From positions 1 through 44,568 of the forward strand of contig JAHDFD010000027.1 in the NCBI GenBank assembly GCA_020628375.1: a DNA stretch of 44,568 nt, written 5' to 3'. Within the stretch, counting starts at the first letter, position 1; each line of letters starts with the position of its first letter. The stretch is from Chitinophagales bacterium (GTDB taxonomy: Bacteria > Bacteroidota > Bacteroidia > Chitinophagales > UBA2359). The position numbers and the translations under genes are program-made. This document shows, piece after piece, positions 12,983 to 44,178 of this stretch. Below the pieces are notes generated by a model. That model made no database searches. It saw only the letters and a program-made list of their open reading frames with translations, and had not been told where the DNA came from.

Positions 12983-13007
12983 TTTTAAATTCGTAATTAT
13001 TGATTCT

Positions 13008-13358
13008 TTGGACAATCCAGTAAAAGATAAAAGCTTCGATTTTGCAGTTAGAATTGTGAATTTGTATAAATACCTTGTTAATACAAAGAAAGAATTTGTA
13101 CTCAGCAAACAATTATTACGCTCAGGAACCTCAGTAGGTGCTAATGTTAGAGAAGCTCAAAATGCTGAAAGCAAAAAAGATTTTATTCACAAACTCTCAA
13201 TTGCACAAAAAGAATGTGACGAAACACTTTATTGGTTAGAATTACTTTGTAAAACAAATTTTATTTCATCAAGTGAATTTGATAGCATTTATAACGAAGG
13301 CGTATCGGTTTTAAAATTGCTAAAACGAATAATTATTAGCACAAAAAATAATTCATAA
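13008..13358 (+). CDS. Four-helix-bundle protein of the TIGR02436 family (so-called 23S rRNA-intervening-sequence protein)
   Basis: KSFDFAVRIVNLYKYL...LSKQLLRSGTSVGANVREAQNAESKKDFIHKLSIAQKECDETLYWLELL matches the family signature. The ORF frame has no ATG, and the most plausible start is TTG at 13008. The gene lies 26 nt after the tktB stop. Confidence 0.65.
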   Translation: MDNPVKDKSFDFAVRIVNLYKYLVNTKKEFVLSKQLLRSGTSVGANVREAQNAESKKDFIHKLSIAQKECDETLYWLELLCKTNFISSSEFDSIYNEGVSVLKLLKRIIISTKNNS

Positions 13359-16361: not shown

Positions 16362-16393
16362 TGGTTGATGGTTGATGGTTGATGGTTGATATA
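16359..16393 (+). repeat. (TGATGGT)x4 plus TGATATA heptamer array starting on the stop codon of the Fe-S gene
   Basis: tgatggttgatggttgatggttgatggttgatata. The 7-nt periodicity places TGA in all three frames. Confidence 0.9.
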
Positions 16394-16421: not shown

Positions 16422-17201
16422 ATGCAGGTAGTACCAATAATGGCTGATTTATTTGCCGAGGGAAAACAACCCGAAGTTTTATTCTGGGTAGGTTGTGCAG
16501 GAAGTTTTGACCAAAGAGCTCAAATGGTTACGAAGGCTTTTGTAAAAATACTGAATAAAGTAGGTGTAAGTTTTGCAATTCTCGGACCAGAAGAAAGCTG
16601 TACAGGTGATCCGGCAAGACGTTCAGGTAATGAGTTTTTATTTCAGATGCAGGCGGCAATGAATATTGAAGTCCTCAATATGTACGAAGTAAAACGCATT
16701 GTAACAACTTGTCCGCATTGTTTCAATACACTGAAAAATGAATATCCGGAATTAGGTGGTAATTACGAAGTAATACATCATACTACTTTCCTTCAGGAAT
16801 TAATTAACGATGGAAAGTTGAAATTAAAAGAAGGTGGAGATTTCAAAGGAAAAAGAATTTCTTACCACGACTCATGTTATTTAGGCAGAGCCAATGAAAT
16901 TTATGAAGCTCCACGTAAGGTTCTTGAACTATTAGATGCTGAATTAGTTGAAATGAAGCGTTGCAGAACAAAAGGTTTATGTTGTGGTGCCGGTGGAGCT
17001 CAAATGTTTAAGGAGGAAGAAGACGGAACTTTAAGGGTAAATCAGGAAAGAACAAAAGATGTTATAGAATCGAAAGCTGATTACATTGCTGTTGCTTGTC
17101 CGTTTTGCTCTACTATGTTAGGTGACGGAATTAAAGAAAAAGAAAAACAAGAAGAAATCAAGGTGCTTGATATTGCAGAAATGCTTGAGAAATTGATGTA
17201 A
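16422..17201 (+). CDS. CCG (cysteine-rich, DUF224) domain protein, partner of the upstream Fe-S protein (HdrD/GlpC-like, C-terminal half)
   Basis: Two CCG-type motifs are present: CPHCFNTLKNEYP and CCGAGGAQMF, with CPFCSTMLGD also present. Homologous gene pairs are separate genes in other Flavobacteriia (from memory, not searched). Confidence 0.75.
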   Translation: MQVVPIMADLFAEGKQPEVLFWVGCAGSFDQRAQMVTKAFVKILNKVGVSFAILGPEESCTGDPARRSGNEFLFQMQAAMNIEVLNMYEVKRIVTTCPHCFNTLKNEYPELGGNYEVIHHTTFLQELINDGKLKLKEGGDFKGKRISYHDSCYLGRANEIYEAPRKVLELLDAELVEMKRCRTKGLCCGAGGAQMFKEEEDGTLRVNQERTKDVIESKADYIAVACPFCSTMLGDGIKEKEKQEEIKVLDIAEMLEKLM

Positions 17202-17222
17202 TATCAACGTTTGGTCAGATAA

Positions 17223-17263
17223 TAAAAAAAGCCCGATGTAAGTTCTTACATCGGGCTTTTTTT
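17223..17263. terminator. Bidirectional rho-independent terminator between convergent genes
   Basis: aaaaaaagcccgatgtaag-ttc-ttacatcgggcttttttt. A 12-bp perfect stem is flanked by A- and T-runs. Confidence 0.8.
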
Positions 17264-17283
17264 ATCGCCATATTTTCTATTGA

Positions 17284-19296: not shown

Positions 19297-19938
19297 ATGA
19301 AAAGTTATTTTTTCAATGTAATGGGCATTTTTGCCTTAATGATCGGCTTTTGCACTTTTGAATCTAATGCTCAAACCCCTGTTTCAGGAAATAATGGCTC
19401 AAGTACTTCTTTTGGAATTTCTGCTGAAATGGGCATCCCTAAATTTGCTTCTAACACCATGAGTATTGATATACTACCGGGTATAGATATTCCTATCAAT
19501 TTCGTAGATTTCAGCGAGGCTTCTGATGTTGGTTTCGGGGTAAGCGGAAATATACAACATACCTTTGCCAATAACCGTGCTGCAGTTCTGGCTAAAGTAG
19601 GTATTATGAATTTTAAAGTGGCAGATCAGGGTATTCTGCGTGCCAATGTAAAAGCAGTTCCTGTAAGTATAGGAGGAAGGGTTTATATTTTCGATGGTTT
19701 ATATGCAGGTGCTGACGTAGGTGCTACTATGGTAACATCAAAATTAAAAGCAACCATTCTATTAGATATAGGCGAATCACGACAGGAAACGGTATTTACT
19801 TTTGCCCCGAATCTGGGTTATCAGTTAAACGTTGGAAACACACAAGTGGATATTGGAGCTAAATACGCTTTGGTTGGTGGTAAGTATAATTACTTTGGTG
19901 TTAGTGCAGGAATTAATTTACCGGTAGGGAAGCGGTGA
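19297..19938 (+). CDS. Outer-membrane beta-barrel (porin-family) protein
   Basis: Signal peptide MGIFALMIGFCTFESNAQ, alternating hydrophobic beta-strand pattern, and aromatic residues at the C-terminus typical of OMPs. 213 aa. Confidence 0.5.
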   Translation: MKSYFFNVMGIFALMIGFCTFESNAQTPVSGNNGSSTSFGISAEMGIPKFASNTMSIDILPGIDIPINFVDFSEASDVGFGVSGNIQHTFANNRAAVLAKVGIMNFKVADQGILRANVKAVPVSIGGRVYIFDGLYAGADVGATMVTSKLKATILLDIGESRQETVFTFAPNLGYQLNVGNTQVDIGAKYALVGGKYNYFGVSAGINLPVGKR

Positions 19939-20012
19939 TAGGTGATAAATGATAAATGATTAGTGATAAATGATTAGTGATTAGTGATTAGTGATTAGTG
20001 ATTAGTGAAATA
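19936..20012 (+). repeat. Eleven consecutive TGATNNN heptamers (TGATAGG, TGATAAA x3, TGATTAG x6, TGAAATA) starting on the stop codon
   Basis: Read directly from the sequence. There is a TGA or TAG in every frame many times over. A terminator hairpin follows immediately. Confidence 0.95.
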
Positions 20013-20335: not shown

Positions 20336-20571
20336 TATATAAATTTTAATGGTTAAAAAATGGAGTGCAAATGTAGTACAACCGACAAGAATACCAAATA
20401 ATTTACCATATTATTTCATCAAAACTTTTAGAATTGAAGGTATTATGTACGATTATATAATAACTAAAACCCTACACATCATAATACACTGATTTTCAGC
20501 ACAAAAAAATGGTTGATGAGAGAATCAAATTCCCCATCAACCATCAATAATCAACTACTAATTACTAATTA

Positions 20572-21830: not shown

Positions 21831-22193
21831 CTAAGATTGTTGCATATACTTTTTAAACCCAAGAATCGTTCTCTGAATTTCATGAACTTGATTTAGTAAA
21901 TCGCTTAAATTTTCTTCATTCAAATAATTTACATCAAAAGATAACAGTAATTGTGTTTCCAACTCACAGGCAGAACCATGAGCATAATCTAAAAATTGCA
22001 AGGTTTGAGCTTTTGTATCTCTACCACAACCTTCAGCAATATTGGAAGGAATTGAAACAGCAGAACGCCTGATCTGTGATATCAAGCCGAATTGTTCAAC
22101 TTTTGGAAAATTTTGAGAAATCAAATAAATATCTTTTACTAGATTCCTTGACTTTTTCCAGGATTTTAATTCTCTAAAATTATGCTTTACCAT
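21831..22193 (-). CDS. Four-helix-bundle protein, TIGR02436 family (second copy), inserted between fadB and fadA
   Basis: ELKSWKKSRNLVKDIYLISQNFPKVEQFGLISQIRRSAVSIPSNIAEGCGR...ELETQL is the family signature. 120 aa. Confidence 0.75.
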   Translation of the reverse strand: MVKHNFRELKSWKKSRNLVKDIYLISQNFPKVEQFGLISQIRRSAVSIPSNIAEGCGRDTKAQTLQFLDYAHGSACELETQLLLSFDVNYLNEENLSDLLNQVHEIQRTILGFKKYMQQS

Positions 22194-24823: not shown

Positions 24824-25165
24824 TTAATTATTTTTAAGGTTTTTCAAAACATTTAAAAGCGGTTGTTCTAATGACGGAATATCGAATTTTATTGTATTCC
24901 AAACAGTTTCTACGTCGGTTTTAAAATATTCGTGAATTAAAATATTTCTCATTCCTTTCATTATTCGCCACGGTATATTCTGACATTCATTTTTTGTTTG
25001 TTCTGTAACATTTGCCGATGCTTCGCCAATTATTTCAATTAAACGCTCGGCAGTTCGTTGGTAAATATTTTCATTTGAAAAGGTTGTAAAGTCAACATCA
25101 TCGAAAGTTTCAATTGCTTCTTTTATTATTTCAAGAATGTGATTAATTCGTTGTTTATCGGTCAT
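24824..25165 (-). CDS. hepT: HepT-like (DUF86) RNase toxin of a HepT/MNT toxin-antitoxin pair
   Basis: 113 aa. Rx4HxY motif RNILIHEY. Overlaps the upstream nucleotidyltransferase gene by 11 nt. Confidence 0.7.
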   Translation of the reverse strand: MTDKQRINHILEIIKEAIETFDDVDFTTFSNENIYQRTAERLIEIIGEASANVTEQTKNECQNIPWRIMKGMRNILIHEYFKTDVETVWNTIKFDIPSLEQPLLNVLKNLKNN

Positions 25166-26024
25166 AAATTAGAATTTTATCTCGTTCAAATCCTTCCTTT
25201 ACAAATGCTCGCAACGCCATTTTACTGGGTACTAAATCTACTTTTCTATTAAATGAATCTTCTAATTTTGCTTGTATTCTACTAATGATGAATAAACTTT
25301 TTTTACTACCTTCCGAAAATTCAATTAAAATGTCAATATCGCTATTTTCTGTTTGTTCTCCTCGTGCGAAAGAACCAAATAGATAGGCTTTGCTAACAGG
25401 TTCTTGCTCAAAAATTGATTGAGCTTTTTTTAAGTCTAAACTATTATTAACATCAATTTCTGATAGATTAAATTTATCTGCAATGTTCTCTAAGGCTCTT
25501 TCCAAATAACTTTTATCCTGGAAAACTTTCATGAGCATAACCGCGCCTTCAACTTGTGCAACAGCATCTTTAGCTTGCAAAATAGCTTCTTCTTCAGTAT
25601 AGCGTGTCTTAAACACATTAGCTAAAGCATCTATCCAATCGTTGAAGAATTTTCTGAAATACAAGGCAAAATTTTCATTCATGCTAACGGTTTCTAGGGC
25701 AATGTTACCCATTAAACAACCATCTGAAGCATCGAAAAAAGTTTTATAGCTGAACTCTTTGAACAGATTTAGTTTTTCTTTTACCTCCATACTTTCATCG
25801 TAAGCGATAGCAAACAAACTGTTTTTATAGCCTTTATACAACAGTTCCAAAACTGCTTCCATTATTTGTTCTTTACCTTTTGGGAAATGGTGGTATAAAC
25901 TTGCCTTTTGCAGTCCGCATGCTTCTGCAAGATCATTCATTGAGGTTTGATGATACCCCTGCTTCCAAAAAACCCGCATCGAGCTTTTAACTACTTCATC
26001 GGCTGAAACCTTCTTTTTTGGCAA
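25155..26024 (-). CDS. TetR-family HTH domain fused to an MNT-type nucleotidyltransferase (putative antitoxin/regulator, 289 aa)
   Basis: N-terminal TetR HTH SMNDLAEACGLQKASLYHHFPKGKEQIM plus a ~180-aa helical TetR body. C-terminal ~100 aa carry the minimal NTase motif AYLFGSFARGEQTENSDIDILIEF (GSx9-11DxD). Confidence 0.7.
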   Translation of the reverse strand: MPKKKVSADEVVKSSMRVFWKQGYHQTSMNDLAEACGLQKASLYHHFPKGKEQIMEAVLELLYKGYKNSLFAIAYDESMEVKEKLNLFKEFSYKTFFDASDGCLMGNIALETVSMNENFALYFRKFFNDWIDALANVFKTRYTEEEAILQAKDAVAQVEGAVMLMKVFQDKSYLERALENIADKFNLSEIDVNNSLDLKKAQSIFEQEPVSKAYLFGSFARGEQTENSDIDILIEFSEGSKKSLFIISRIQAKLEDSFNRKVDLVPSKMALRAFVKEGFERDKILIYDR

Positions 26025-26117: not shown

Positions 26118-27362
26118 TTGCCAAAAATTCAGACATTGAAAAAAACAAGTATTGCAATAATAGGTGGTGGCGCAGCAGGGTTCTTTGCTGCACTTAATTG
26201 TGCTATTCTGGCAAAGGAAAAAAACAAACAGGTTTCTATTACAATATATGAACAAGCGAAAAATGTTTTGCAAAAAGTTCGCATATCCGGTGGTGGTCGT
26301 TGTAATGTAACTCATGCTTGCTGGACTCCAAAAGAATTGGTAAAGTTCTATCCTAGAGGAAGTAAGGAATTATTAGGTCCGTTTCATACTTTTTGTTGTG
26401 GCGATACAGTAGCATGGTTCGGAGAAAGAGGCGTTGAATTGAAAATTGAAGGTGATGGTAGAATGTTTCCTAAAAGTGATTCTTCTCAGACAATAATCGA
26501 TTGTTTACTCAAAACCACCAATGATTTTGGTATAAAAGTATTAACCAAACATAAATTGACACATTTAAGTCAGTCTGATAATGGCAAATGGATAATAGAA
26601 TTGAACAAAGAAAAAAAGCTTGAATTCGATAAGGTGATGATCGCCAGTGGCAGCTCTAAAGTGATGTGGGATAAACTGTCAACATTAGGATTAGAAATAG
26701 TGCGCCCTGTTCCTTCGTTGTTTACTTTCAATATTAAAAATTCGTTGTTAAATCAATTAATGGGCTTATCATTACAAGATGTACACATAAAAATTCTTGG
26801 AACAAAGCTAAATTCAAATGGTCCATTATTGATTACTCATTGGGGTTTAAGTGGGCCTGCTGTACTGAAACTTTCTGCCTGGGGAGCCCGAAAGTTAAAT
26901 GAATTACAATATGATTTTCAAATCCAGATAAATTTCACAGGAGCTAGTAAACACGAGGAAGTAAAAAAGCAACTTCTGGCTATTAGGAATAATCAGAAAG
27001 TGATGAATATTGCTCAATTTAATATTCCTAAAAGATTATGGAAATATTTGGTTACAGAAGCAGATATTCCACCAGAGCGTACATGGAATGAGTTTGGGAA
27101 AAAACAAGCTGGCAGCTTAGCAACGATCATTACGCAATCGACTTATAATGTTAAAGGGAAAAGTACCTTTAAAGAAGAGTTTGTAACAGCCGGTGGTATT
27201 GACCTTAAGGAAATAGATTTCAAAAAATTTGAAAGTAAGAAATTCCCCGGTTTATTTTTTGCAGGCGAAGTGCTGAACATAGATGCCATTACCGGTGGAT
27301 TCAACTTTCAGGCAGCCTGGACGGGCGGCTATATTGTTGGGAGAAACATGGTTGATTATTGA
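26118..27362 (+). CDS. NAD(P)/FAD-dependent oxidoreductase, HI0933/YhiN (BaiN-like) flavoprotein family
   Basis: IAIIGGGAAGFFAA dinucleotide-binding motif and GGGRCNVT, with C-terminal FFAGEVLNIDAITGGFNFQAAWTGG. The ORF-track start is TTG at 26118. A second TTG at 26136 (MKKTSIAIIGGG) is equally plausible. Confidence 0.8.
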   Translation: MPKIQTLKKTSIAIIGGGAAGFFAALNCAILAKEKNKQVSITIYEQAKNVLQKVRISGGGRCNVTHACWTPKELVKFYPRGSKELLGPFHTFCCGDTVAWFGERGVELKIEGDGRMFPKSDSSQTIIDCLLKTTNDFGIKVLTKHKLTHLSQSDNGKWIIELNKEKKLEFDKVMIASGSSKVMWDKLSTLGLEIVRPVPSLFTFNIKNSLLNQLMGLSLQDVHIKILGTKLNSNGPLLITHWGLSGPAVLKLSAWGARKLNELQYDFQIQINFTGASKHEEVKKQLLAIRNNQKVMNIAQFNIPKRLWKYLVTEADIPPERTWNEFGKKQAGSLATIITQSTYNVKGKSTFKEEFVTAGGIDLKEIDFKKFESKKFPGLFFAGEVLNIDAITGGFNFQAAWTGGYIVGRNMVDY

Positions 27363-27387
27363 TAGGTGATAAATGATGAGTGATTTA
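27360..27387 (+). repeat. TGATAGG-TGATAAA-TGATGAG-TGATTTA heptamer array on the stop codon
   Basis: Read directly. The complementary strand carries ATGATGAATGATGG after the hemCD stop. Confidence 0.85.
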
Positions 27388-32949: not shown

Positions 32950-33843
32950 ATGAATCCATACTTGAAAAATAACAAAAGATTCAGTCGTTCTACTTCCTTT
33001 ATATTTTGTATTGTAGCTTATATAATCGCCATTGCTATTGCTTTTTTTGTACAGAAACAATTTGCCTACTTAGGAGATATATACAGTGTTTTAATCGCTG
33101 ATGTTATTGCTACAATCGTAATCTATATATTTGGTTTGTTTGTTTCTAATGCAAGTTTATACGATCCTTATTGGAGCGTTGCACCTGTTCCTATTGCTAT
33201 TTATTGGTGGTCATTATCGAACTTCGATCTTTCATTGAATAAAATACTCCTGCTTATTGTTTTGCTGTATTGGGCTGTTCGTTTAACACTAAACTGGGCA
33301 AGAGGCTGGTCTGGTTTAGAACACGAAGATTGGCGATATGGAATGCTTCGACAGAAAAATGGAAAGTTATACCAATTCGTCAATTTATCAGGTATTCACC
33401 TGTTTCCGACTATTTTAGTTTTTCTGGGAATGTTACCGGTTTACTATGTGCTTGCCTTTAATTATGAGGCTCAAACCATGTACAGTATTTCAGCTTTTAT
33501 TATTGGAATAATTGCGGTTTCTATTTCCTTGATCGCCGATGAACAACTAAAAAAATTCGTCAAAGAAAACAAAGTCAGAGGTGTATTCCTTCGTTCAGGC
33601 TTATGGCAATATTCTCGTCATCCGAATTATTTTGGGGAAGTTAGTTTTTGGTTCAGCACGTGGTTATTTGCATTGTCTGTAAATTCTGATTACCTCTGGA
33701 CGGGCATAGGTGTTTTAGCTATGTTCTTATTGTTCTGGTTTATCAGCATTCCAATGATGGACGAACGAATGTCGAAGCGAAAGATCGGCTATAAAGATTT
33801 TATGAAGACCACTTCGAGATTCTTTCTGTTGCCGAGAAGGTGA
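32950..33843 (+). CDS. DUF1295 / steroid 5-alpha-reductase-like membrane protein
   Basis: Polytopic membrane protein with the C-terminal motif LWQYSRHPNYFGE. 297 aa. Confidence 0.7.
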   Translation: MNPYLKNNKRFSRSTSFIFCIVAYIIAIAIAFFVQKQFAYLGDIYSVLIADVIATIVIYIFGLFVSNASLYDPYWSVAPVPIAIYWWSLSNFDLSLNKILLLIVLLYWAVRLTLNWARGWSGLEHEDWRYGMLRQKNGKLYQFVNLSGIHLFPTILVFLGMLPVYYVLAFNYEAQTMYSISAFIIGIIAVSISLIADEQLKKFVKENKVRGVFLRSGLWQYSRHPNYFGEVSFWFSTWLFALSVNSDYLWTGIGVLAMFLLFWFISIPMMDERMSKRKIGYKDFMKTTSRFFLLPRR

Positions 33844-33854
33844 GGGGCTCTTGC

Positions 33855-34020
33855 CTAGGGGATACCTGCCTTCGCAGGTATGACTGATAGAAGTGTTGGA
33901 TACCAAACATTCACAAGTATGGGTTGATTGAAGTGTTGGATACCCAAACATTTGCAGGTATGACTGATAGAAGTGTTGGATACCCAACATTTGCGGGTAT
34001 GACTGATAGAAGTATTGATT
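33855..34020 (+). repeat. Tandem array (4 units of ~40 bp) of a hairpin-containing repeat, consensus GGATACC(C)AAACATTTGCAGGTATGACTGATAGAAGTGTT
   Basis: The first unit ctaggggatacctgccttcgcaggtatgactgatagaagtgttggatacc contains the inverted repeat atacctgc/gcaggtat. Positions 33855-33906 are identical to 36041-36092. Confidence 0.9.
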
Positions 34021-36000
34021 TTAAAAGTTCATGATCTCTAAATAATGTGAGGTGTAATAGTTACCCCAAATCAGTAAATTTTCTCCATCGAACAAAACTC
34101 TTCTAGGACTCGTTATTGGTTCATATTCCGCATAAATTTCATTATTGGAATAATCGAATTCAACGATCTTTTGTTGGTTACTTGGCACAATAAATACTGA
34201 ATATAAATTGCTTGAGTTAAAGGTAAAATCCCACCAAAAAGAACCTCCATTTAACTGTCCTAAATATTCTGGATTTTCACCAAAACTTGCTCTGTGTCCT
34301 TCAGATCCACTTACAAACATATTTTCGTAAGGTGCCAATACAATTTGTTGGTGGTCGAAGCTTGAACTTACAAAATAAGTAGTAGATGGATTAATGAACT
34401 CACCATATTGTGTCACCTCAAACTGATAAATATTCGTATAGGTCAAATAAAAAAGTGTTCTTATACCATCAGCTTTTCTGTATGCAATTTTGCTATAAGA
34501 GGCGGTATCGAATAATTCATCGTTAATGGTTAAATCATCTCGACTGTAAGAACGCAATCCTCTGAAGGCATTGACGGATGCGCTTAAATTATGCGTGGCA
34601 TAAATATTTCCTGTTCCATCTGTAGTTACGAATGCTGTTTCCTGATCGGGGTAACTTCCTGATCCATTTGGCCCTTTACCTGTATAAATATGATCTAACT
34701 CGTTAAAAGTATTTACATTGTAAATCCTGATCTTACTATCATCACAACCGACATAAAGTTCCAGACCGTAGCCATTATCTCCTATGGCAAAGCAGGTAGC
34801 ACGTACAGGAATATCAATCGTTTTATTAACTACATTATTTATATAATCGAATTCTGTTATCTCTAATCCATCTGAACGTAATAGATACACTAGTTTCTCT
34901 TCAGGGTGTAAGATCATATCTTTTATGTCGAAATCAAAAGCAGCATTATTCTGAGTAAAAATATGCTCTGAATTTGATTCAACAACCTGATTATTCTCAG
35001 TCTCAACAGTTATAAAATAGCAATAATCTGTTTGAAAAGCTATATTTCCATCTGTATGAGTCGTAATCATTGGATCATCAAATTCAGCGATCAATGTAGG
35101 TTCATAAGCATAACAATCGTAGGCATGTCTGTAAACTTTATAGGCTTCAAAATCCTCACCTGTATAAGCACTCCAATTTAATTCGATGGTATTCCCCACT
35201 AATTGTGGAGGATCTAAAACGACAGGTTCTACTTTATTCACTGTTAGGAAAAATTCTTTTTCCAGACCATAAGCATCGGGTAAATAGCTATCATTTCTTA
35301 CATAAACGGAAATATAATGCTTGCCTTCACTCAGTCTTTCAGTGAAATCTATTTTGCCTTCGCTATTCAAATTTCCTTCAAAGAAAACACCATCCAAATC
35401 GCTATTCCATCTTGTAATAAGGGTTTCTACATTTTCGGGTGCTTCGAGGTAGTAAAAGAAATAATCTGCTTCAAACGGAATATCTTCATCAGGACCATAA
35501 AGTTGCCCATGGGGTTTTAGAATCTCTATATTAATATCTACATAATCTTCATCTAATGGAGAAGGTACCGCCACAAGTTCAACCAAAGTGCCATCTTCTT
35601 CTACTTCGATATATCTAGTAGTTGTATTTGTAACAGTTCCAGAGGTGAAACCAGAGAAAGAATACTTTTCATCGGTTGTAATGGTAATTTGATACTCACC
35701 AGTCGTGACATTCTCGAAAATAAGGTCTCCATTTTCATCTGTAAAACCGATCAGATCAGTGTCGTTCACCACAACTTCTACATCTTCAAGGGGTAATAAT
35801 CCGGAATCAACAATATAACCAGTATTAGGGCTTAGATCTAGTTGAACTTTAATCGTTAGCGTAGCTGTTTGTTCTCCAAAGATCAAAGTGCCGGCATCTT
35901 CATCTTTGTTACAGCTTGAAAGTATAAACACAAATAGCAATAATAGAAGGGATAATTGATGTTTCATCTGGGATGGGGTTGATGTGATATTTGATTGCAA
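34021..36000 (-). CDS. Lipoprotein of unknown function with an N-terminal carboxypeptidase-regulatory-like beta-sandwich region and a Y/W-rich C-terminal half
   Basis: The most likely start is the second Met (MKHQLSLLLLLFVFILSSC, a lipoprotein signal) at 35967. The rest is an unknown domain, and the Y/W-rich C-terminal half may be a propeller. Repeat arrays flank the gene on both sides. Confidence 0.6.
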   Translation of the reverse strand: MQSNITSTPSQMKHQLSLLLLLFVFILSSCNKDEDAGTLIFGEQTATLTIKVQLDLSPNTGYIVDSGLLPLEDVEVVVNDTDLIGFTDENGDLIFENVTTGEYQITITTDEKYSFSGFTSGTVTNTTTRYIEVEEDGTLVELVAVPSPLDEDYVDINIEILKPHGQLYGPDEDIPFEADYFFYYLEAPENVETLITRWNSDLDGVFFEGNLNSEGKIDFTERLSEGKHYISVYVRNDSYLPDAYGLEKEFFLTVNKVEPVVLDPPQLVGNTIELNWSAYTGEDFEAYKVYRHAYDCYAYEPTLIAEFDDPMITTHTDGNIAFQTDYCYFITVETENNQVVESNSEHIFTQNNAAFDFDIKDMILHPEEKLVYLLRSDGLEITEFDYINNVVNKTIDIPVRATCFAIGDNGYGLELYVGCDDSKIRIYNVNTFNELDHIYTGKGPNGSGSYPDQETAFVTTDGTGNIYATHNLSASVNAFRGLRSYSRDDLTINDELFDTASYSKIAYRKADGIRTLFYLTYTNIYQFEVTQYGEFINPSTTYFVSSSFDHQQIVLAPYENMFVSGSEGHRASFGENPEYLGQLNGGSFWWDFTFNSSNLYSVFIVPSNQQKIVEFDYSNNEIYAEYEPITSPRRVLFDGENLLIWGNYYTSHYLEIMNF

Positions 36001-36040
36001 AGGTAGTGAATATTTGAGAGGTTGTATTATGTGGCTTTAG

Positions 36041-36298
36041 CTAGGGGATACCTGCCTTCGCAGGTATGACTGATAGAAGTGTTGGATACCAACATACGCT
36101 GGTGTGCCTGATTGAAGTGTTTATTGGGGATAACTGCCTTCACAGGTATGACTGGGAGAAGTGTAGGATACCAACATAAGCTGGTGTGCCTGATTGAAGT
36201 GTTTATTGGGGATAACTGCCTTCACAGGTATGACTGGTTGAAGTGTTTATTGGGGATACTTGCATTCGCAGGTATGACTGATTGAAGTGTAATGTCTG
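36041..36298 (+). repeat. Tandem array (~6 units) of the same hairpin repeat family, organised as a 2-unit (~82 bp) higher-order repeat
   Basis: The first unit is identical to the first unit of the array at 33855. Units alternate between ggataccaacata[c/a]gctggtgtgcctgattgaagtgtttatt and ggggataactgccttcacaggtatgactgg..gaagtgt. Confidence 0.9.
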
Positions 36299-39200
36299 TT
36301 ACCACCAATCGGGTGGTTGAATAGAAAGATCGTTCAGGAGTTTACGGATGCCTTCGAGGCTGTCTTTATATTCGCCGAAGTGGCTGGCGATATCGCTGAG
36401 GGCAGAATCATTTTTGGCCTTTTTGTTTTCTGAAAAAATAGTTTTTATTTGTTCCCAACGTTTTTGCTCTCCAGCATTAGCCAAACCAACCAAAGCTTTA
36501 AACTTCAATAAATTGGCTTCTGAACCATTGGTCAAGGTTTGGCTTTCGTTTTCGTAGTGAGAAACAATAAGCGTTTCCAATTCTTTATCGTTCATGATCG
36601 GTACTAACTTCTCTACCATTTTATTCATATTACGATACGAGCCTTGCAGTTTAAATGGTGGTTCGGTTCTATATTCATCATTGATAGAAGCCGAGCGAAT
36701 ATATTCCTGATTTACATTTAAAACTACATCTCTCACTCTTATCATTTTTTCAATGATAGATACATAATCGTTTATTTCTTCTGGGCTGTGTTTGTGTACC
36801 AATGTAATTCCTTCCTGGTTTCCTTGTTGAGCAATTTTAATAATATTTTTCACATCATCTGTACCCTTAGCCGTCAATTTTTGCAGAATGGGGTTAGAAG
36901 TCATGGCATTTTCAAGATAACTTAATTCAAATTCTGCTTTGGCATCGCCTAATATATCTCCTAAGTTGTAAATATCGGCACGGTTGGCTAACATATCAGG
37001 AATCTGGAATTTCTCTCCACTTTCAGTATATGGATTTCCCGCCATAACCACACAAACTTTCTTGCCTCTGAAATCGTAGGTTTTAGTTTTGCCTTTGTAA
37101 GTACCTTCAATTTTGCGTTGCGCATCACATAATGAAATAAATTTCTGTAAAAACTCTGGATGGCAATGTTGGATATCATCTAAATAGATCATTACATTAT
37201 CGCCCATTTCAAAAGCAAGGTTCAATTTTTCCAATTCTTGTTTTGCTCCTGCTGAATCGGCTTGCATCGGATCAACAGAAGTGATATAATGTCCCAATGC
37301 AGGACCGTTGATCTTCATAAAAACCAAGCCCAAACGATTGGAAAGGTATTCCATTAAAGTGGTTTTACCATATCCCGGTGGTGAGATCAGTAAGAGCAAT
37401 CCCATACGATCGGTTCGCTGTGTATCACCAACCGAACCAATTTGCTTCGATAAATTATCTCCTAAGATCGGTAAATACACTTTGTCGATCAATTCGTTTC
37501 TCACAAAAGAAGATAACACTCGCGGTTTGAATTCTTCCAAACGCATATTGGCTTTTTCTTCTTCAATAACTTGCCTTTTTAAATCCTGATAGGCTTTGTA
37601 AGCCATTACTGTTTCTGCATCGAATTTCTTCAGCTTATTAATGAACGCTAAAAACTCTATGGAATAAGTTCCTTTTTCGATGAGCTTATGATCGCCCAAC
37701 ATTTCGTTTAAATGTATGCTCGTATTGGTATCGTTAATGCGCCATTTTGCTTTTTCATTCCAAAGAAATGAAGCAATGCCCTGATAACGCCAACGCTCAT
37801 CTGCATTTTCAATTGCCAGAAATGCCAAAACCCATTTACCTATTAACTGGAAGCGTTCGATTGGCTTTTCCTTCAGTGCTTCCAAAGAGCTATTGTATCC
37901 TTTTTCTGATTTTGTTTCTTTTAAATATTGAATTAAAGATTCGGCTAATTCTTTGTCTGTTAAGGAAACGATATAATCTTTTTGCTTCAATAATTCTTCA
38001 TATAAATAAGCAGCTGCTAAGCGGGTATTAAATTCAAAATTGAGTGCTGCGCTTTCTTTGAATTCAATTATTTTTTCTTCCAATTTGTCAATCAGGTAGA
38101 AGAATTGTTTCGATTCAGGAAAGACCTTTAATACTTGAGCTGCACCATTGATCTCATTCTGAAAATCAGTTTTAAATCCTTCATTTTCCAAGCCTTCCCA
38201 AAACAGTAAAGCCGCTGCTCTTTCTTCGGGTCCGAACTTTAACAGATCAATATTTTCATCTATTTCTATAAGGCGATCCAATATTTTTTTGGCGTCTTCA
38301 TTATGTACACCTTTTACATAAGATTCCTGTATTCTCGAATCGATGATCTTATTGATAAATGGAATTTTTTCATCTTCAGCAAGTCCTTTGTAAGTATCTT
38401 TCAGCAGTTTATTAAAAATACTGAATGCTAAAAATTCTGCCCGATAAACCAGTTCATTTTCAGAGATCAATTGCTGATTCCAGAAAGGTTTTGTTTCTAT
38501 AAAATCGGCGTTGGTAATGGGTTCAAAAAAGTTCGTTCCCATTAAGTGAAAGCACATATCTTCACCTTGTGGTACTATACTCAGATCTAGTTTTTGCGTA
38601 TTAACAGAAAACTGATGCTTACCAAGCTTGATGATATTTTCACCATCGACAAAGAGTTCGTTTTTATCTTTCAGTTGTCGGACTGCCTCTTCTTTAGCTG
38701 CTTTTAATTGTGCTGCAACATCGTCTGACTTGACCGGATCTTCCAAGGTTCTTAACTGCGAAGAAATATCGCGCACCTTCTCCACCATCAGATCGGCAGC
38801 GAAATAAGCATTGATCTCATCATTGGTTTTGAAAGTCGCCAGTTTATTTTTTATACCTTTCAGAATCCTTTCAGCTGAATTCATTAAGGCATTTGTTTTA
38901 CGGTTATAAGCTTCGACTAACTGTAATTTACGATTTTCAAATGCCTCGTAAATTTCTTCTCTTTTTTCAGCTATTTCAACAGTAAATTCATCGTAATCGG
39001 CAAATTTCCCTTCTAAGTCTTCGAGCTGAACCATTAATTTATTCAGATATTCATCGGCTTGAACTGGTGTTTCTACAACTGATAAATAATTAATTAAACT
39101 CTGATCAAGTAATTTCGCTTGTGCTGAAAAGTTGGCTACCGATTCTGTTCCTCTTAATTCATTCAAACGCTGTTTGAGAACAGATTTCGATTTATTCAAA

Positions 39201-41176
39201 TTGGCGAAGATGGCAGAAATACTGTCTATGATCTTGGTAGTTTGTGTGGCATCTTCAATCTTAAGATTTCCAACTATTTCGATCAGCATTTTTAAATCCT
39301 GTCCTATAACATCTATTTCTTCATCTAACTTTTTAGCTTGCGTTGCGCTCTTTAGCTCAGGAATTAGTTTGTTTTTTGCTTCAACATCCTCGATATAAGG
39401 GGCAAGTGCTTTATCTGAACTAAGGAATTTTACACAATTTTCTGAAACCTTATCACTTTGTTCTACTAGTTTTTGTTCTAATACTTCTACTCTCTCTAAA
39501 TCAATATATCTCAATTCTTTGAGGGAAATAGTCTCCCCTCTTATGATTCGGAAATCGTTTAGAACCTGAACATAATCATTGATCGATTCAAAACGTAAGT
39601 ATTTGGTTTTTTCCAGTTGTTCTTCGATCTTTTTTTCTAGCTCTTCAAAACTTTTCGCTGTACTTTTCTTGATGCTTTGGACTTTATCGAACTCATCAAT
39701 AGCTGCGGTTGCCGTCTTTCTGATCGAAGTAATTGGTTCTTGTAAATTAAAAGCCTGTTCTTCACCGATCCAGTAATAAGCATCGATTATATCATTGGAT
39801 TTTTTACTCAGATCATAGTATAGATCCTGATAGGAATCTTCTTTATTCAGTAAAGCTATCAGCTCATAAGCCTCTGCCATTGCTTTAACAATGTCTTTAT
39901 TACCGACTTTATACAAATAGCTGTCTTTCAAATCGGAAGGAGCTTCGGTGCTTTGTGTATAGGGCGTTTGCCAGATTTGGATTACATGGTGTTTGGTACT
40001 TTCTTCTTCAGATTTAAAGTAAGCCATTTCACCATTTGGGAATAAGGTAAATCCATTACAGATCACTGGATTCTCTACCTGTTGTTCAATAATGTTATAA
40101 GAAAGCAGGATATAAACGTTCTGTTCAGGTGAAAAGAAAATGTATAAGAAATCTTCTCCATTGGGTGATGATAGCTTTTGCTCAAATTTAAGTCCTTCGA
40201 GTTTATTATCGAAAAACTTGTATTGCCCTGTTTGCAGATAATAACCATTTGAGAATATCAATCCCTGATCGTCAGGTAATAAAATTGCAGCACTAGCGAT
40301 AGTATCTATTCTTTTTGCTTCTTTAACCTTATCGTTATAAATGAAGTATCTGTAATCTTCTTGATAAGGTCTTATTTTAAGCGCGAATAAGTTACCTAAA
40401 TCGGCATAATAATATTCACCATCATCCAGTTTTTGTTCTTTTTGAGCAACTTCTTCAGCATAAATACCTTTTCCATCATCGGTATTATCTTCAATTTTGA
40501 TCGTTATATCACCACCAACTGCTTCAACAAATAATTTATCTTTTATGGAAACATGTGGATGTTTTCCATCTCTGAAATCATCTCTTCTTAATCTACTCCA
40601 CGAAAAATCGAGCTGTTCCGGAAATTTATATTCATGATCACTTCTGTCATCTACATATTGAAGTTCATTTTCTTTTATTAACCATTTAAAGGTTTTGATA
40701 TCACCTATATTTTTACTTACCTGAAAAACCATATACAGGTAATTTCCTATTCGGGCAAATTTGGTAAATACAGTTTCTCTGTAATATTTATAAAGATTTT
40801 TAAAAGAATCGATAAATTTTTCGTCTGAAAGAAGCTTTACTTCTTGTTCCTGAAAGGCATTATTACTGAATTTATAAATGCTGAAAACATCTTCAATTTT
40901 AATTTCGGAGCGTAAGCCAATATGTACATTATAGCCAAATAAAACCGTATCTCCCAATGCAAAAATATCTCTGGCAATACAGTTATTAGATGTATTGATC
41001 CTATCGGTCGCCAGCAGCTTTGTTTCGATAGAACCGAATACTTTTTTTCTTTCTGTATTCAGTTGATCAAGTCGCTTACTTAATTCACCTTGTTGTTTCA
41101 GTAAACGGGTTCTGATTATACCATAAGTATCTCCTTCAAGTTGAGTTGTCTGATTTATATTTTTCTCTTCCTGCAT
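36299..41176 (-). CDS. Giant (1625 aa) protein. The C-terminal region is a MoxR/AAA_5-type ATPase, and the N-terminal ~1250 aa are uncharacterised, with a long central coiled-coil or helical region.
   Basis: Walker A LLLISPPGYGKTTL. Walker B and sensor region MIYLDDIQHCHPEFLQKFISLCD resemble the MoxR DEINRApPevqsaLL pattern. KKVCVVMAGNPYTESGEKFQIPDMLANRADIY resembles the MoxR ATQNP...LPEAQLDRF pattern. The middle 700 aa are E/K/L-rich heptad-like sequence. Confidence 0.75.
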   Translation of the reverse strand: MQEEKNINQTTQLEGDTYGIIRTRLLKQQGELSKRLDQLNTERKKVFGSIETKLLATDRINTSNNCIARDIFALGDTVLFGYNVHIGLRSEIKIEDVFSIYKFSNNAFQEQEVKLLSDEKFIDSFKNLYKYYRETVFTKFARIGNYLYMVFQVSKNIGDIKTFKWLIKENELQYVDDRSDHEYKFPEQLDFSWSRLRRDDFRDGKHPHVSIKDKLFVEAVGGDITIKIEDNTDDGKGIYAEEVAQKEQKLDDGEYYYADLGNLFALKIRPYQEDYRYFIYNDKVKEAKRIDTIASAAILLPDDQGLIFSNGYYLQTGQYKFFDNKLEGLKFEQKLSSPNGEDFLYIFFSPEQNVYILLSYNIIEQQVENPVICNGFTLFPNGEMAYFKSEEESTKHHVIQIWQTPYTQSTEAPSDLKDSYLYKVGNKDIVKAMAEAYELIALLNKEDSYQDLYYDLSKKSNDIIDAYYWIGEEQAFNLQEPITSIRKTATAAIDEFDKVQSIKKSTAKSFEELEKKIEEQLEKTKYLRFESINDYVQVLNDFRIIRGETISLKELRYIDLERVEVLEQKLVEQSDKVSENCVKFLSSDKALAPYIEDVEAKNKLIPELKSATQAKKLDEEIDVIGQDLKMLIEIVGNLKIEDATQTTKIIDSISAIFANLNKSKSVLKQRLNELRGTESVANFSAQAKLLDQSLINYLSVVETPVQADEYLNKLMVQLEDLEGKFADYDEFTVEIAEKREEIYEAFENRKLQLVEAYNRKTNALMNSAERILKGIKNKLATFKTNDEINAYFAADLMVEKVRDISSQLRTLEDPVKSDDVAAQLKAAKEEAVRQLKDKNELFVDGENIIKLGKHQFSVNTQKLDLSIVPQGEDMCFHLMGTNFFEPITNADFIETKPFWNQQLISENELVYRAEFLAFSIFNKLLKDTYKGLAEDEKIPFINKIIDSRIQESYVKGVHNEDAKKILDRLIEIDENIDLLKFGPEERAAALLFWEGLENEGFKTDFQNEINGAAQVLKVFPESKQFFYLIDKLEEKIIEFKESAALNFEFNTRLAAAYLYEELLKQKDYIVSLTDKELAESLIQYLKETKSEKGYNSSLEALKEKPIERFQLIGKWVLAFLAIENADERWRYQGIASFLWNEKAKWRINDTNTSIHLNEMLGDHKLIEKGTYSIEFLAFINKLKKFDAETVMAYKAYQDLKRQVIEEEKANMRLEEFKPRVLSSFVRNELIDKVYLPILGDNLSKQIGSVGDTQRTDRMGLLLLISPPGYGKTTLMEYLSNRLGLVFMKINGPALGHYITSVDPMQADSAGAKQELEKLNLAFEMGDNVMIYLDDIQHCHPEFLQKFISLCDAQRKIEGTYKGKTKTYDFRGKKVCVVMAGNPYTESGEKFQIPDMLANRADIYNLGDILGDAKAEFELSYLENAMTSNPILQKLTAKGTDDVKNIIKIAQQGNQEGITLVHKHSPEEINDYVSIIEKMIRVRDVVLNVNQEYIRSASINDEYRTEPPFKLQGSYRNMNKMVEKLVPIMNDKELETLIVSHYENESQTLTNGSEANLLKFKALVGLANAGEQKRWEQIKTIFSENKKAKNDSALSDIASHFGEYKDSLEGIRKLLNDLSIQPPDWW

Positions 41177-41311
41177 TAGCTTTTGGGGTAAAGGGTGAAA
41201 ATTTAGAATAATTTTTTCTTCAACTTGTTTAGTAGTCCAATATCATAGTGTAAGAAACTATGACATTGGATTATTAACAAATGAGCATTCTTAAGCTACT
41301 TTCAATGACAA

Positions 41312-43402
41312 TTAAAAGAAATTATCAATTCCTACATTCCCCATACCTAAATGCTTAACTGAATTTATCATTGTTTGAATTATATCTTTATCATTATCAC
41401 CAGCCTGACTATACATTTTCATTAGGAAGGCACTTAAAGTAAGATTTTTAAGTGTATCAGAATCAAAACCAGATTTTGCTATTAGCTTTCCAATTCGAGT
41501 AGATAAATCTTCTCCGCTTCCATTTTCAGCAAGTAGCATTTGTTTTACACTTGAAATCGTTTCGCTTTCATTTACTAATCTATCAATCCCTTTGGCTCTG
41601 CTTATTTGCTTCATTATATTCTCGAAGAACATTGTTTCACCACCGACTATATCAATATTAGAATTTTTAAGTGCTTCAGCAAGTGTATTGGCTTGTGCTT
41701 GTGCTATGGCCTCCTGAATATTAATATTTGCAAGTTCGATTTCCTTTTCCTTTTCAAGCTGAAGTTTGAACTCTTCGTGTTCTTTACCTACACCATCTAA
41801 TTTTTTCATTGCTTCGGCTTTCTCTTCAATCCCTAATGCTTCGGCTTTTGCTTGTTCTTCTATTACATGAGCTTCGGCTACTCCTTGCTCTTTTATAATT
41901 TGTGCTTCTACTAAGCCTCTTTCTTTTTCAGCTTCTGCTTTAATTCTTATACTTTCGGCTTCGGCTTTTGCAGTTGCTTCGATCACTTTAGCTTCAGCTA
42001 AACCTTCAACTTCTAAAGCTTGAGCTTTTGCTTCAATTACTTGTGCTTCTGATTTTCCAACTGCTGCTTCTTCATTTGCTTTTGCTTCTGCAATTATTTT
42101 TCTGGCTTCAGCTTCTTTTACCGAAGCATTCTTTTTAGCTTCGGCTTCAATAAGTGCTTGTTCCGCTTCTAGTTTTGAGGCTTCTTTTGCCGCTTCAGCT
42201 CGCTGTACGTGTTTAATCAATTCTTGTTCTGCTTCTTGTTCGGCTGCTGTTACAGCTACTTGTTTAGACCTGTCAGCTTCAGCAAATGCCTTTGTATCTT
42301 TAATTTTCTCTTCTTCCGCTACAACTTCTTTTTCTACCATTACTCTTTCACGAATAACATCCTGTATATTCTTTCGCTCAACCTCTAATACTTTTTCTTT
42401 TTCTATCTCGGCAAGTGTAACTATTCTTTCCCTTTCTGTTACTTCTAATAACCTGTCTTTTTCTACTCTTTCAGCTTCAATGGCTTCCGTTCTTTCTTTA
42501 TTTTTTAATGCAACTATAACCTGTCGTTCCTTATTTGCTTCAGCAATTTCTATTTCCTCATCAGTAGCAATTCTTGCTGATTCCATTTTTAATCTTTCCT
42601 CATGTGCTACTTTCTCAGCTTCTGCTGTTTCTCTTGATTGGATATTAGCGATTTCTCTTTTTTGTTTTTCTTCTTTTTCAGCTAGTTGTCTATCTAACTC
42701 AAGAATTGCCTCTCTTGCTTCAACATCTTGTTTTTTAATAACTTTTTCTTCTTCTCTTCTTATTAGATTGGCTTTCATATTCTGTTCCGCAGTCAATTCT
42801 GTGATCTTCTTAATACCTTCTGCATCTAAAATATTATCAGCTCGTAAAAATTCAACTGGTGTTTGTTCTAAATAATCTATAGCGGCATCATCTAAAAGAT
42901 AGCCATTTAAGTCAGTACCTATTATATCTAAAATTTCTTGTTTAAATTCTTTTCTGGAATCATAAAGCTGAACAAAATCGAATTTTTTACCTACCGTTTT
43001 CAGTGCCTCTGAAAATTTCGCTTCAAATAATTCATTTAGTGTTGTAATATCTGATGCTCTTTCACAACCAATTGATTGCGCTACTTTTTTAACTTCTGCT
43101 GTTTCAGGATTTACACGAACAAAAAAAGCTACTTTAATATCAGCACGCATATTATCACGGCATATTAAACCATCTTTTCCCATACGATGAATCTCTACTT
43201 TCTTCACTGAAATATCCATAATTTCGCCTTTATGAATAACAGGAATTACCATCATTCCTTCAAAAGCGACCTGGGTTCCTCCAACACCTGTTCTCACCAA
43301 TGCCTTTCCCTGAGAGATCTTCTTAAAAAAGCTAACGGTAACGATAGCACCAATAATAATTACAAAAATTAAAATACCGAGCACGATGAATGCGATTTCC
43401 AT
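41312..43402 (-). CDS. Flotillin-family (SPFH/band-7) protein, YqiK/FloT-like
   Basis: N-terminal TM segment followed by an SPFH domain, then a ~300-aa EA-rich coiled coil (AEAEA repeats) and a C-terminal flotillin tail. 696 aa. Confidence 0.85.
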   Translation of the reverse strand: MEIAFIVLGILIFVIIIGAIVTVSFFKKISQGKALVRTGVGGTQVAFEGMMVIPVIHKGEIMDISVKKVEIHRMGKDGLICRDNMRADIKVAFFVRVNPETAEVKKVAQSIGCERASDITTLNELFEAKFSEALKTVGKKFDFVQLYDSRKEFKQEILDIIGTDLNGYLLDDAAIDYLEQTPVEFLRADNILDAEGIKKITELTAEQNMKANLIRREEEKVIKKQDVEAREAILELDRQLAEKEEKQKREIANIQSRETAEAEKVAHEERLKMESARIATDEEIEIAEANKERQVIVALKNKERTEAIEAERVEKDRLLEVTERERIVTLAEIEKEKVLEVERKNIQDVIRERVMVEKEVVAEEEKIKDTKAFAEADRSKQVAVTAAEQEAEQELIKHVQRAEAAKEASKLEAEQALIEAEAKKNASVKEAEARKIIAEAKANEEAAVGKSEAQVIEAKAQALEVEGLAEAKVIEATAKAEAESIRIKAEAEKERGLVEAQIIKEQGVAEAHVIEEQAKAEALGIEEKAEAMKKLDGVGKEHEEFKLQLEKEKEIELANINIQEAIAQAQANTLAEALKNSNIDIVGGETMFFENIMKQISRAKGIDRLVNESETISSVKQMLLAENGSGEDLSTRIGKLIAKSGFDSDTLKNLTLSAFLMKMYSQAGDNDKDIIQTMINSVKHLGMGNVGIDNFF

Positions 43403-43479
43403 AGATAGAGTGTTTAGGTTAAGAATGATTTATTGAATAGACATTACTATCCATTGATTCAAAATAAATTTCTAAAATA

Positions 43480-44178
43480 TCAAATTTCTTCTACTTTTTG
43501 AACATTATAGTAGTTCTCTTTGCTTTTATCAACGACTATACATTGAAAGCCTTTAGGAATAATACCTTTAACGGACTTAATATTGATGGTAATAATTCTG
43601 CCATTGTCAACTGCCTCAGCCTGACCGATTCTTTGTTCAGTTGCTTCTAAAATAACCTTACAAAGTTTTCCTTCAATGGTAGTTTCAGCATTGCCTTTTC
43701 TATTAAGTTTACTGAACATTCCACTAAATGGAGTTAATAAAAATTTAGTGATGAATAGGCTTATTATAAAATTAGGAATTAAGTATAACATACTTAAGCC
43801 TAAACTACCATTATTAAAATATTGGTTTGAATATAGGGAAATACCCCACATAACTGCAACCAAACAGGTAACGATTACAATCACTGGCATTTTTCCAAAA
43901 TGAAAGAATCTAAGCAGTTCTATCATAGTGTCTTCACCAAAACCAGCTCCTCCGGTTTTAGAATTAAGTTCAAGATCACTATCAACATCAGCGTCTAAGT
44001 CTATATCAGTATCTGCATCTAAGTCAAAATCAAAAGAATCAAAGTCGAGTACTCCAATTAAAGAGACTATATTCAATCCGAGGAAAAACAACAAGAGTAA
44101 AGTGAGTAATAGGTTCTCTGGTGCAAAAGCGATATGAATAATGTCTGTCATGATAAGTATAAATATAACTATACTCAA
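43480..44178 (-). CDS. NfeD/YqiJ-like membrane protein with a C-terminal OB-fold domain, the canonical partner of flotillin
   Basis: N-terminal TM segments, an acidic D-rich linker (DFDSFDFDLDADTDIDLDADVDSD), a second TM block, and a C-terminal ~70-aa beta-rich domain GKLCKVILEATEQRIGQAEAVDNGRIITINIKSVKG typical of NfeD short forms. 232 aa. Confidence 0.65.
   Translation of the reverse strand: MSIVIFILIMTDIIHIAFAPENLLLTLLLLFFLGLNIVSLIGVLDFDSFDFDLDADTDIDLDADVDSDLELNSKTGGAGFGEDTMIELLRFFHFGKMPVIVIVTCLVAVMWGISLYSNQYFNNGSLGLSMLYLIPNFIISLFITKFLLTPFSGMFSKLNRKGNAETTIEGKLCKVILEATEQRIGQAEAVDNGRIITINIKSVKGIIPKGFQCIVVDKSKENYYNVQKVEEI

Follow-up and report, generated by a model that had tools for sequence, protein, structure and literature searches.

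Two tandem repeat arrays in a 44,568-nt contig of a Chitinophagales bacterium (Bacteroidota; GenBank assembly GCA_020628375.1, contig JAHDFD010000027.1) enclose a single gene, which encodes a putative surface lipoprotein. We refer to the whole of this contig as the window. In our judgment both arrays are probably clusters of NTS/dRS3-type hairpins, the kind of element that is cut in Neisseria by the GIY-YIG nuclease SsnA. They would be decayed and polar, would resemble NIMEs (Neisserial intergenic mosaic elements), and would form an 'NTS-gene-NTS' bracket around the lipoprotein gene. Three lines of evidence carry this reading: the anatomy of the arrays, the sequence and structure of the one hairpin that each array retains, and the association of that hairpin class with GIY-YIG genes in other genomes.

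Anatomy of the two arrays

The stretches 33855-33906 and 36041-36092 agree at all 52 positions, as the original prediction had it, and the match ends abruptly on either side. Our unit map places four units in array 1 (33858-34020) and six in array 2 (36044-36298), which agrees with the earlier count of four and about six. The units are 40-47 nt long, and all 10 lie in direct orientation and abut head to tail. Tandem Repeats Finder reports array 1 at 33871-34017 (period 39-40, 3.6-3.7 copies, 83% matches) and array 2 at 36044-36246 (period 82, 2.5 copies, 93% matches), with a further call at 36101-36290 (period 44). The period of 82 recovers the two-unit higher-order repeat of ~82 bp that had been proposed for array 2. 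Its block joins a stem-less 'B' unit to a hairpin-derived unit with two stem mismatches; the two kinds of unit alternate, and the block is duplicated. The parts of the arrays are as follows.

33855-33906, no strand assigned: head of array 1, made of CTAG, the intact unit and the first 9 nt of the next unit; identical to 36041-36092
33858-33885, minus strand: intact hairpin 1, putatively NTS-type, reading AGTCATACCTGCGAAGGCAGGTATCCCC on the minus strand; stem 33862-33869 / 33874-33881, loop 33870-33873; minus-strand head AGTCATACCTGCGAAGGCAGGTATCC
33898-34020, minus strand: decayed units 1b-1d, which keep GGATACC and the tail CTGATAGAAGTGT; stem broken or shortened
36041-36092, no strand assigned: head of array 2, 52 nt, an exact copy of 33855-33906
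36044-36071, minus strand: intact hairpin 2, putatively NTS-type, with the sequence of hairpin 1; stem 36048-36055 / 36060-36067, loop 36056-36059
36084-36298, minus strand: decayed units 2b-2f; within the 82-nt higher-order repeat (36044-36246), 2b+2c and 2d+2e are near-identical (95%)

Within the 44.5-kb contig these sequences are far more frequent than chance would allow. A 25-nt core (up to three mismatches) has five copies against 0.00 expected, and the tail CTGATWGAAGTGT has nine against 0.11. Every copy of core and tail lies in one of the two arrays, and the contig's other intergenic regions contain none. Because the units abut and leave no spacers, we rejected a CRISPR array, as the earlier note had done. 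Integron cassettes were rejected as well: no attC-like imperfect inverted repeat was seen on reading the sequence, an inspection made by eye with no attC model run, and no integrase domain occurs among the scanned open reading frames (ORFs) of the window.

The head units form an 8-bp stem with a 4-nt loop and, as single-stranded DNA, fold at -7.4 kcal/mol (z = -3.9). The remaining eight units give folds no better than those of shuffled sequences, except that 2f has a weak, interrupted stem (z = -2.1). Since only the head units fold stably, each array amounts to one intact hairpin with three to five decayed copies, and the original picture of a hairpin in every unit is wrong for eight of them. 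Units 1b-1d are 74-85% identical to the head. In both arrays the intact copy occupies the same end, leftmost on the plus strand and directly after CTAG. Neighbouring units differ by 12-43%, whereas the heads are identical over 52 nt, a contrast that speaks for selection, gene conversion or recent copying and against passive decay.

An identical 52-mer on both sides of a gene in a metagenome-assembled genome (MAG) invites the question of assembly. A 2.2-kb gene segment might have been misplaced between repeat copies, in which case the alternative path through the 52-mer would yield a single array and a 2.19-kb circle. The breaks in Logan unitigs (SRR14415273, SRR14415274) do fall exactly 30 nt inside the repeats, so that short-k graphs cannot order the pieces. 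However, the junctions from unique sequence into repeat in Logan contigs agree with the window, and the arrays diverge right past the 52-mer, so that an assembler with k >52 can choose between the paths, as can ordinary reads of 150 nt. We consider such a misassembly very improbable.

The intact hairpin as a probable variant of the NTS/dRS3 hairpin

On the minus strand the head has the layout A-GTC-ATACCTGC-GAAG-GCAGGTAT-C; written as a minus-strand oligonucleotide, the hairpin is ACTTCTATCAGTCATACCTGCGAAGGCAGGTATCCCCTAG. In Neisseria the NTS has the sequence CGTCATTCCCGCGMAVGCGGGAATCYRG, which includes the classical dRS3 repeat (Chenal et al., 2025, PMC11893778). SsnA, one of the Ssn nucleases (single-domain GIY-YIG proteins, cd10448), binds and cuts the NTS when it is single-stranded DNA, acting on just one of the two strands, with the cut falling ~3 nt 5' of the motif (PMC11893778). 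The 3 nt that precede the palindrome are needed for cutting, and the C that follows it is the most critical position for binding (PMC11893778).

Like NTS and the related SRM (Ssn-related) motifs, the window hairpin is intergenic and has an 8-bp palindrome, a 4-nt GAAG loop, GTC(AT) on the 5' side and C on the 3' side. It shares with NTS the string GTCAT, the GCG-AAG-GC centre and the 3' C after the palindrome. The two sequences differ at 7 of 28 positions, and four of these differences make up two compensatory stem pairs, T-A swapped to A-T and C-G to T-A. They also part at the 3' end, which is ATCCCC in the window and ATCCAG in NTS. The window differs further in having a Bacteroidota MAG as its host and one intact motif per array. 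A stable palindrome of ~8 bp with a 4-nt loop is present in the head units only, and the minus-strand head carries the oriented flanks, GTC on the 5' side and C directly on the 3' side.

We searched more widely with a generalised pattern, GGATNCCNGCCTTCGCNGGNATGAC, which has 21 fixed bases and a chance expectation of about none. It matches in more than 120 IMG/VR contigs. Both free stem pairs are complementary in 139 of the 147 matches, and these 139 use 12 pair combinations, the A-T/T-A of the window among them. Pairing at this rate is a strong sign of covariation and points to a structured element. Stretches that contain the exact 25-mer GGATACCTGCCTTCGCAGGTATGAC number at least 120 in the GTDB species genomes. 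Among the matches listed, these belong to Chloroflexota, Alpha-, Beta- and Gammaproteobacteria, Bacteroidota, Ignavibacteria, Nitrospirota, Planctomycetota, Zixibacteria and a genome of the candidate phyla radiation (CPR); the Bacteroidota copies listed come from seven loci of one MAG, FW602_bin.19. The flanks of the 25-mer are lineage-specific (loci L122-L241), and some MAGs are rich in copies, for example CAZAGU01, JAUIAP01 and SCUC01. A metagenome scan with the 25-mer plus TG returned three single copies on unrelated contigs (GC 41-56%) and no arrays.

Association of the hairpin class with GIY-YIG genes

Across bacteria, SRM motifs flank ssn genes (PMC11893778). A profile search of 242 hairpin-bearing loci gave 10 single-domain GIY-YIG ORFs of ~96-104 aa, three of which were confirmed as Pfam PF01541. 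Hairpins of the family lie within ~100 nt of all 10 ORFs, and in nine cases on both sides. One of the 10 is at locus L223, whose genome carries the exact hairpin variant of the window. Judged by sequence, the hairpins beside these ORFs reproduce the published NTS-ssn-NTS architecture.

A covariance model, R1, was built only from the 25 hairpins that flank the 10 GIY-YIG ORFs. On the minus strand of the window it scored the two heads at 31.8 bits (E = 3.9e-8, head 1) and 30.3 bits (E = 1.2e-7, head 2). Unit 1d followed with 18.8 bits (E = 7e-4), and nothing else in the window was significant. Taken with the flanks, the loop and the covariation of the stem, the model leads us to read the intact hairpin best as a variant, with compensated stem changes, of the NTS/dRS3 (Ssn-related) hairpin.

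The original prediction had assigned the repeats to a family like the repetitive extragenic palindromes (REP) and the bacterial interspersed mosaic elements (BIME) that they build. Such elements, together with the IS200/IS605-related REP-associated tyrosine transposase (RAYT), are short extragenic palindromes in mosaic clusters, and a small nuclease or transposase is believed to process them in the form of single-stranded hairpins. Spread by a RAYT would account for elements that are intergenic, palindromic and clustered in mosaic arrays, and the general idea of an intergenic hairpin-repeat family stands. The specific family does not. No GTAG lies beside the palindrome, the units keep a single orientation where REP elements alternate, and no Y1_Tnp gene was found among the window proteins. 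The hairpin class moreover adjoins GIY-YIG genes in other genomes, not Y1 transposase genes. An NTS/dRS3-type element fits better, and we give a REP/RAYT origin hardly any credence.

The bracketed lipoprotein gene

The arrays bracket exactly one gene, the lipoprotein gene, and both the direct orientation of the arrays and this exclusive flanking were described correctly at the outset. The convergent DUF1295 and lipoprotein genes have their stop codons at 33843 and 34021-34023, respectively, and array 1 takes up the space between these. Array 2 begins directly past the stop codon of a 1625-aa gene (36299-36301) and ends 73 nt before the ATG of the lipoprotein gene. The genes and the spacer concerned are listed below.

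32950-33843, plus strand: convergent neighbour encoding a DUF1295 membrane protein (Pfam); stop codon 11 nt from array 1
34021-35967, minus strand: bracketed lipoprotein gene, 648 aa, with a signal peptide ending ILSSC followed by N-K-D-E-D
35968-36040, minus strand: unique spacer of 73 nt between array 2 and the lipoprotein ATG
36299-41176, minus strand: DUF3686 / DUF7902 / AAA_5 'DNA repair ATPase' (Pfam), 1625 aa; stop codon abutting array 2

The lipoprotein most likely starts at ATG 35967, which gives 648 aa and matches the product in the protein collection; the 659 aa reported earlier would require the TTG at 36000. A TAccTTTG box can be read in the 73-nt spacer, 30 nt upstream of the ATG. 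We take this box to be a promoter motif of the Bacteroidota -7 type, and it suggests that the lipoprotein gene may have its own promoter.

A remote family of ~600-aa proteins, to which the lipoprotein shows 20-26% identity by alignment and 23-32% in a HMMER search, has Cys19 as an invariant residue. No close homolog was found among 5.8 billion proteins. The motif K-(D/E)2 is a surface export signal in Bacteroidetes (PMC5080379), and the N-K-D-E-D that follows the cysteine is consistent with such a signal. An AlphaFold model (pLDDT 80) predicts N-terminal beta-sandwich domains and a C-terminal beta-propeller, and the predicted propeller matches YncE, the leptospiral antigen Lp49 and WD40 proteins.

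The position of the arrays also bears on a role in RNA. On the coding strand both arrays begin a few nucleotides past a stop codon, and they could therefore act in the 3' untranslated regions of the two minus-strand genes, where the hairpin would stabilise or terminate transcripts in the manner of some REP/BIME elements. Array RNA does fold somewhat better than shuffled sequences (z = -2.4 and -2.9). However, each array has one stable hairpin only, and neither has a T-tract. We counted 0 terminator-like sites in 33500-36700 and rejected an intrinsic terminator, while the same contig holds a canonical one at 17222-17265, with a 21-bp stem and T-runs. The whole window gave no Rfam match at gathering thresholds. 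The asymmetric flanks of the hairpin (GTC ... C), finally, are those that matter to a DNA-binding nuclease that ignores RNA (PMC11893778). An RNA-level element is, in our estimate, improbable.

Array polarity

Copies of the 3' arm tend to accumulate on one side of the hairpin. Read on the GGAT..ATGAC strand, direct copies of this arm lie downstream of an intact hairpin in 20 loci and upstream in eight. At loci L006 (from 2753 onward) and L077 (minus strand) an intact hairpin heads an array of the 3' arm only, with GCGGGAATGAC recurring every 20-21 nt. Two further loci, L172 (2861-3006) and L181 (6078-6280), have arrays of whole units with a period of 30 nt. The decayed units of the window lie on the same side as the excess of arm copies elsewhere, and by analogy with Neisseria this would be the side of the Ssn cut. 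The comparison suggests that arrays may grow by repeated breakage and imprecise repair beside one functional hairpin.

A model for the bracket and its relation to NIMEs

A sequence of events that could link these observations is as follows. The intact hairpin would fold when the minus strand is exposed as a single strand, in the course of replication, repair or the uptake of DNA. A cognate Ssn-like enzyme, whose gene would lie elsewhere in the genome, would then bind the folded hairpin and might also nick it. By analogy with Neisseria, the putative cut would fall within the tail, at ACTTCT^ATC, some 3 nt 5' of the motif. Breakage followed by imprecise repair, together with slippage and unequal exchange, could then build a degenerate array beside the hairpin. 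The promoter-bearing surface-lipoprotein gene would be bracketed as NTS-gene-NTS by two such arrays, whose identical 52-nt heads are in direct orientation, and the bracket may affect recombination of that gene.

In Neisseria, DNA arranged as NTS-gene-NTS transforms more poorly when SsnA is present (PMC11893778). Such a bracket lowers the integration of incoming DNA and marks recombination-prone loci of surface proteins (PMC11893778, PMC1797815). NIMEs, which consist of dRS3 inverted repeats and RS units, have been proposed as recombination substrates (Bentley et al., 2007, PMC1797815). The earlier note's alternative, that the present arrays may serve as recombination substrates around a lipoprotein cassette, is in line with this proposal and with the transformation result for NTS-gene-NTS DNA. 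The arrays of the window are likewise non-coding, are built around a similar 20-nt palindrome, stand on both sides of a putative surface-protein gene and vary by duplication. In having a cell-surface protein gene between two hairpin elements, and in belonging to a hairpin class that flanks GIY-YIG genes in the loci we fetched, they also resemble NTS/SRM elements. The bracketed lipoprotein and its K-D-E signal thus parallel the NIME- and NTS-flanked surface proteins of Neisseria; its assignment to the surface comes from the lipobox Cys19, the K-D-E that follows it and the predicted beta-propeller.

The arrays depart from NIMEs in several respects. NIMEs contain many intact dRS3 repeats and RS spacers of 50-150 bp from more than 100 families, whereas the window has a period of 40-47 nt, no separate spacer family and eight of 10 units lacking the palindrome. 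The multiple intact repeats with 50-150 bp RS units that define a NIME are not found here. Nor does the dRS3 string ATTCCC-N8-GGGAAT match, as the window reads ATACCT-N8-AGGTAT.

Evidence against the proposed reading

Several results weigh against an NTS/dRS3-type bracket. Domain and profile searches of the window found no GIY-YIG gene in the 44.5-kb contig, and the window contains only two intact hairpin copies. The published NTS string, with one mismatch allowed, does not match the window hairpin, which has seven mismatches. The published degenerate SRM regular expression gives 0 matches on either window strand; this string fails because a T-A stem pair stands where it demands V...B, and it is a hand-made search heuristic rather than a biochemical criterion. 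The test with model R1 is partly circular and counts as supportive only, because the training hairpins had been picked with a window-shaped pattern. Short-period tandem arrays with this hairpin are uncommon in the family (6 of 240 loci). The composite unit of hairpin arm and tail, CAGGTATGACTGRTWGAAGTGT, had 0 matches in JGI metagenomes, and scans of viral contigs gave one chance match to the tail and none to the B unit. A protein search with the three minus-strand translations of both arrays found no trace of an array-derived ORF. Finally, the GC content of the lipoprotein gene, 0.34-0.36, equals that of its neighbours; the gene therefore bears no mark of recent import, and we rejected a foreign origin by composition.

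Some of these points would suit an alternative in which the arrays are inert relics. They would be NTS-type by descent, through past spread or horizontal transfer, with no nuclease left, and would now be junk arrays shaped by slippage and unequal crossing-over that flank the gene without consequence. The lack of a nuclease gene in the window and the native composition of the lipoprotein gene fit this account, as do the decay of eight of the 10 units and an 82-nt higher-order repeat that plain tandem duplication would explain. The locus of the nearest homolog (28% identity) has no such repeats, which also fits. Yet neutral decay would not leave 52-nt identical heads beside units as different as those that follow them, and the position of both intact copies at the same array end speaks against it too. 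We regard inert relics as unlikely, though as an alternative to be taken seriously.

Neighbouring genes and other features of the window

In an empty-site synteny comparison, orthologs of the DUF3686 gene were at most 56% identical, and the genes downstream of them differed; the collections searched contain no close relative. Por_Secre_tail domains among the window proteins, and best matches to Saprospiraceae and Cytophagales, place the contig in a Bacteroidota lineage. The DUF3686 ATPase lies within a conserved-looking gene set on the minus strand (36299-44178) that includes a 696-aa protein (41312-43402) that is strongly skewed in composition and matches no Pfam entry, and a YqiJ_N protein. 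Among the relatives (L250 and L251), one has a Band_7 gene two genes upstream. A weak Y1_Tnp match lies directly upstream of the DUF3686 ortholog in L251 (5292-5816).

Tracts of a TGA-containing heptamer, (NTGATNN)n, with up to 10 units, occur at four places:

16358-16392, plus strand: heptamer tract
19935-20004, plus strand: heptamer tract
27352-27386, plus strand: heptamer tract
20534-20554, minus strand: heptamer tract

Three of the four start at or overlap the stop codon of a gene, and the fourth lies ~18 nt downstream of one. They run in the sense direction of the adjoining gene and are stop-rich in several frames. We know of no described function for such tracts. The array tail, TGATAGA AGTGTTG, is similar to one heptamer of these tracts.

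The terminator at 17222-17265 is a perfect 21-bp inverted repeat with A- and T-runs, placed between a CCG-domain gene (16422-17201) and an M3 peptidase gene. It is a canonical bidirectional intrinsic terminator and shows that ordinary terminators are in use in this genome. At the left end of the window, a very long reading frame on the minus strand (1 to ~9600) seemingly runs off the contig. It contains 15/30-nt coding repeats at 1-210 and ~285-nt modules near 6800-7600, and probably encodes a giant repetitive surface protein, a putative assignment for a frame whose continuity is not confirmed. Two 23S_rRNA_IVP genes (four-helix bundle, bAvd-like) and a HepT-like toxin gene are found at 12921-13358 (plus strand), 21831-22193 (minus strand) and 24824-26024 (minus strand). 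The toxin gene adjoins an ORF in which TetR and nucleotidyltransferase (MNT-like) domains occur together.

Implications

The system would not represent a new class, as the array type has been known since the work of 2000-2007 and the enzyme-repeat pair since 2025. One could envision a bolder scenario, in which a working Ssn-hairpin system operates in deep-branching Bacteroidota outside the published search definitions. A single hairpin would there seed a polar 'scar' array on the cut side by nicking and faulty repair, and the paired arrays would make the lipoprotein gene an exchangeable or excisable cassette, a NIME-like device for surface variation. We consider this full scenario doubtful and put it forward as speculation.

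Should the proposed reading of the arrays be correct, Ssn-type hairpins would, by way of compensated stems, reach beyond the published search strings into Bacteroidota. The bracketing of surface-protein genes by repeats, in the style of Neisseria, would then recur in an unrelated phylum. The terminal place of the intact hairpin, and the decayed copies that lie where the cut side is predicted, would also hint at the mode by which such arrays grow.

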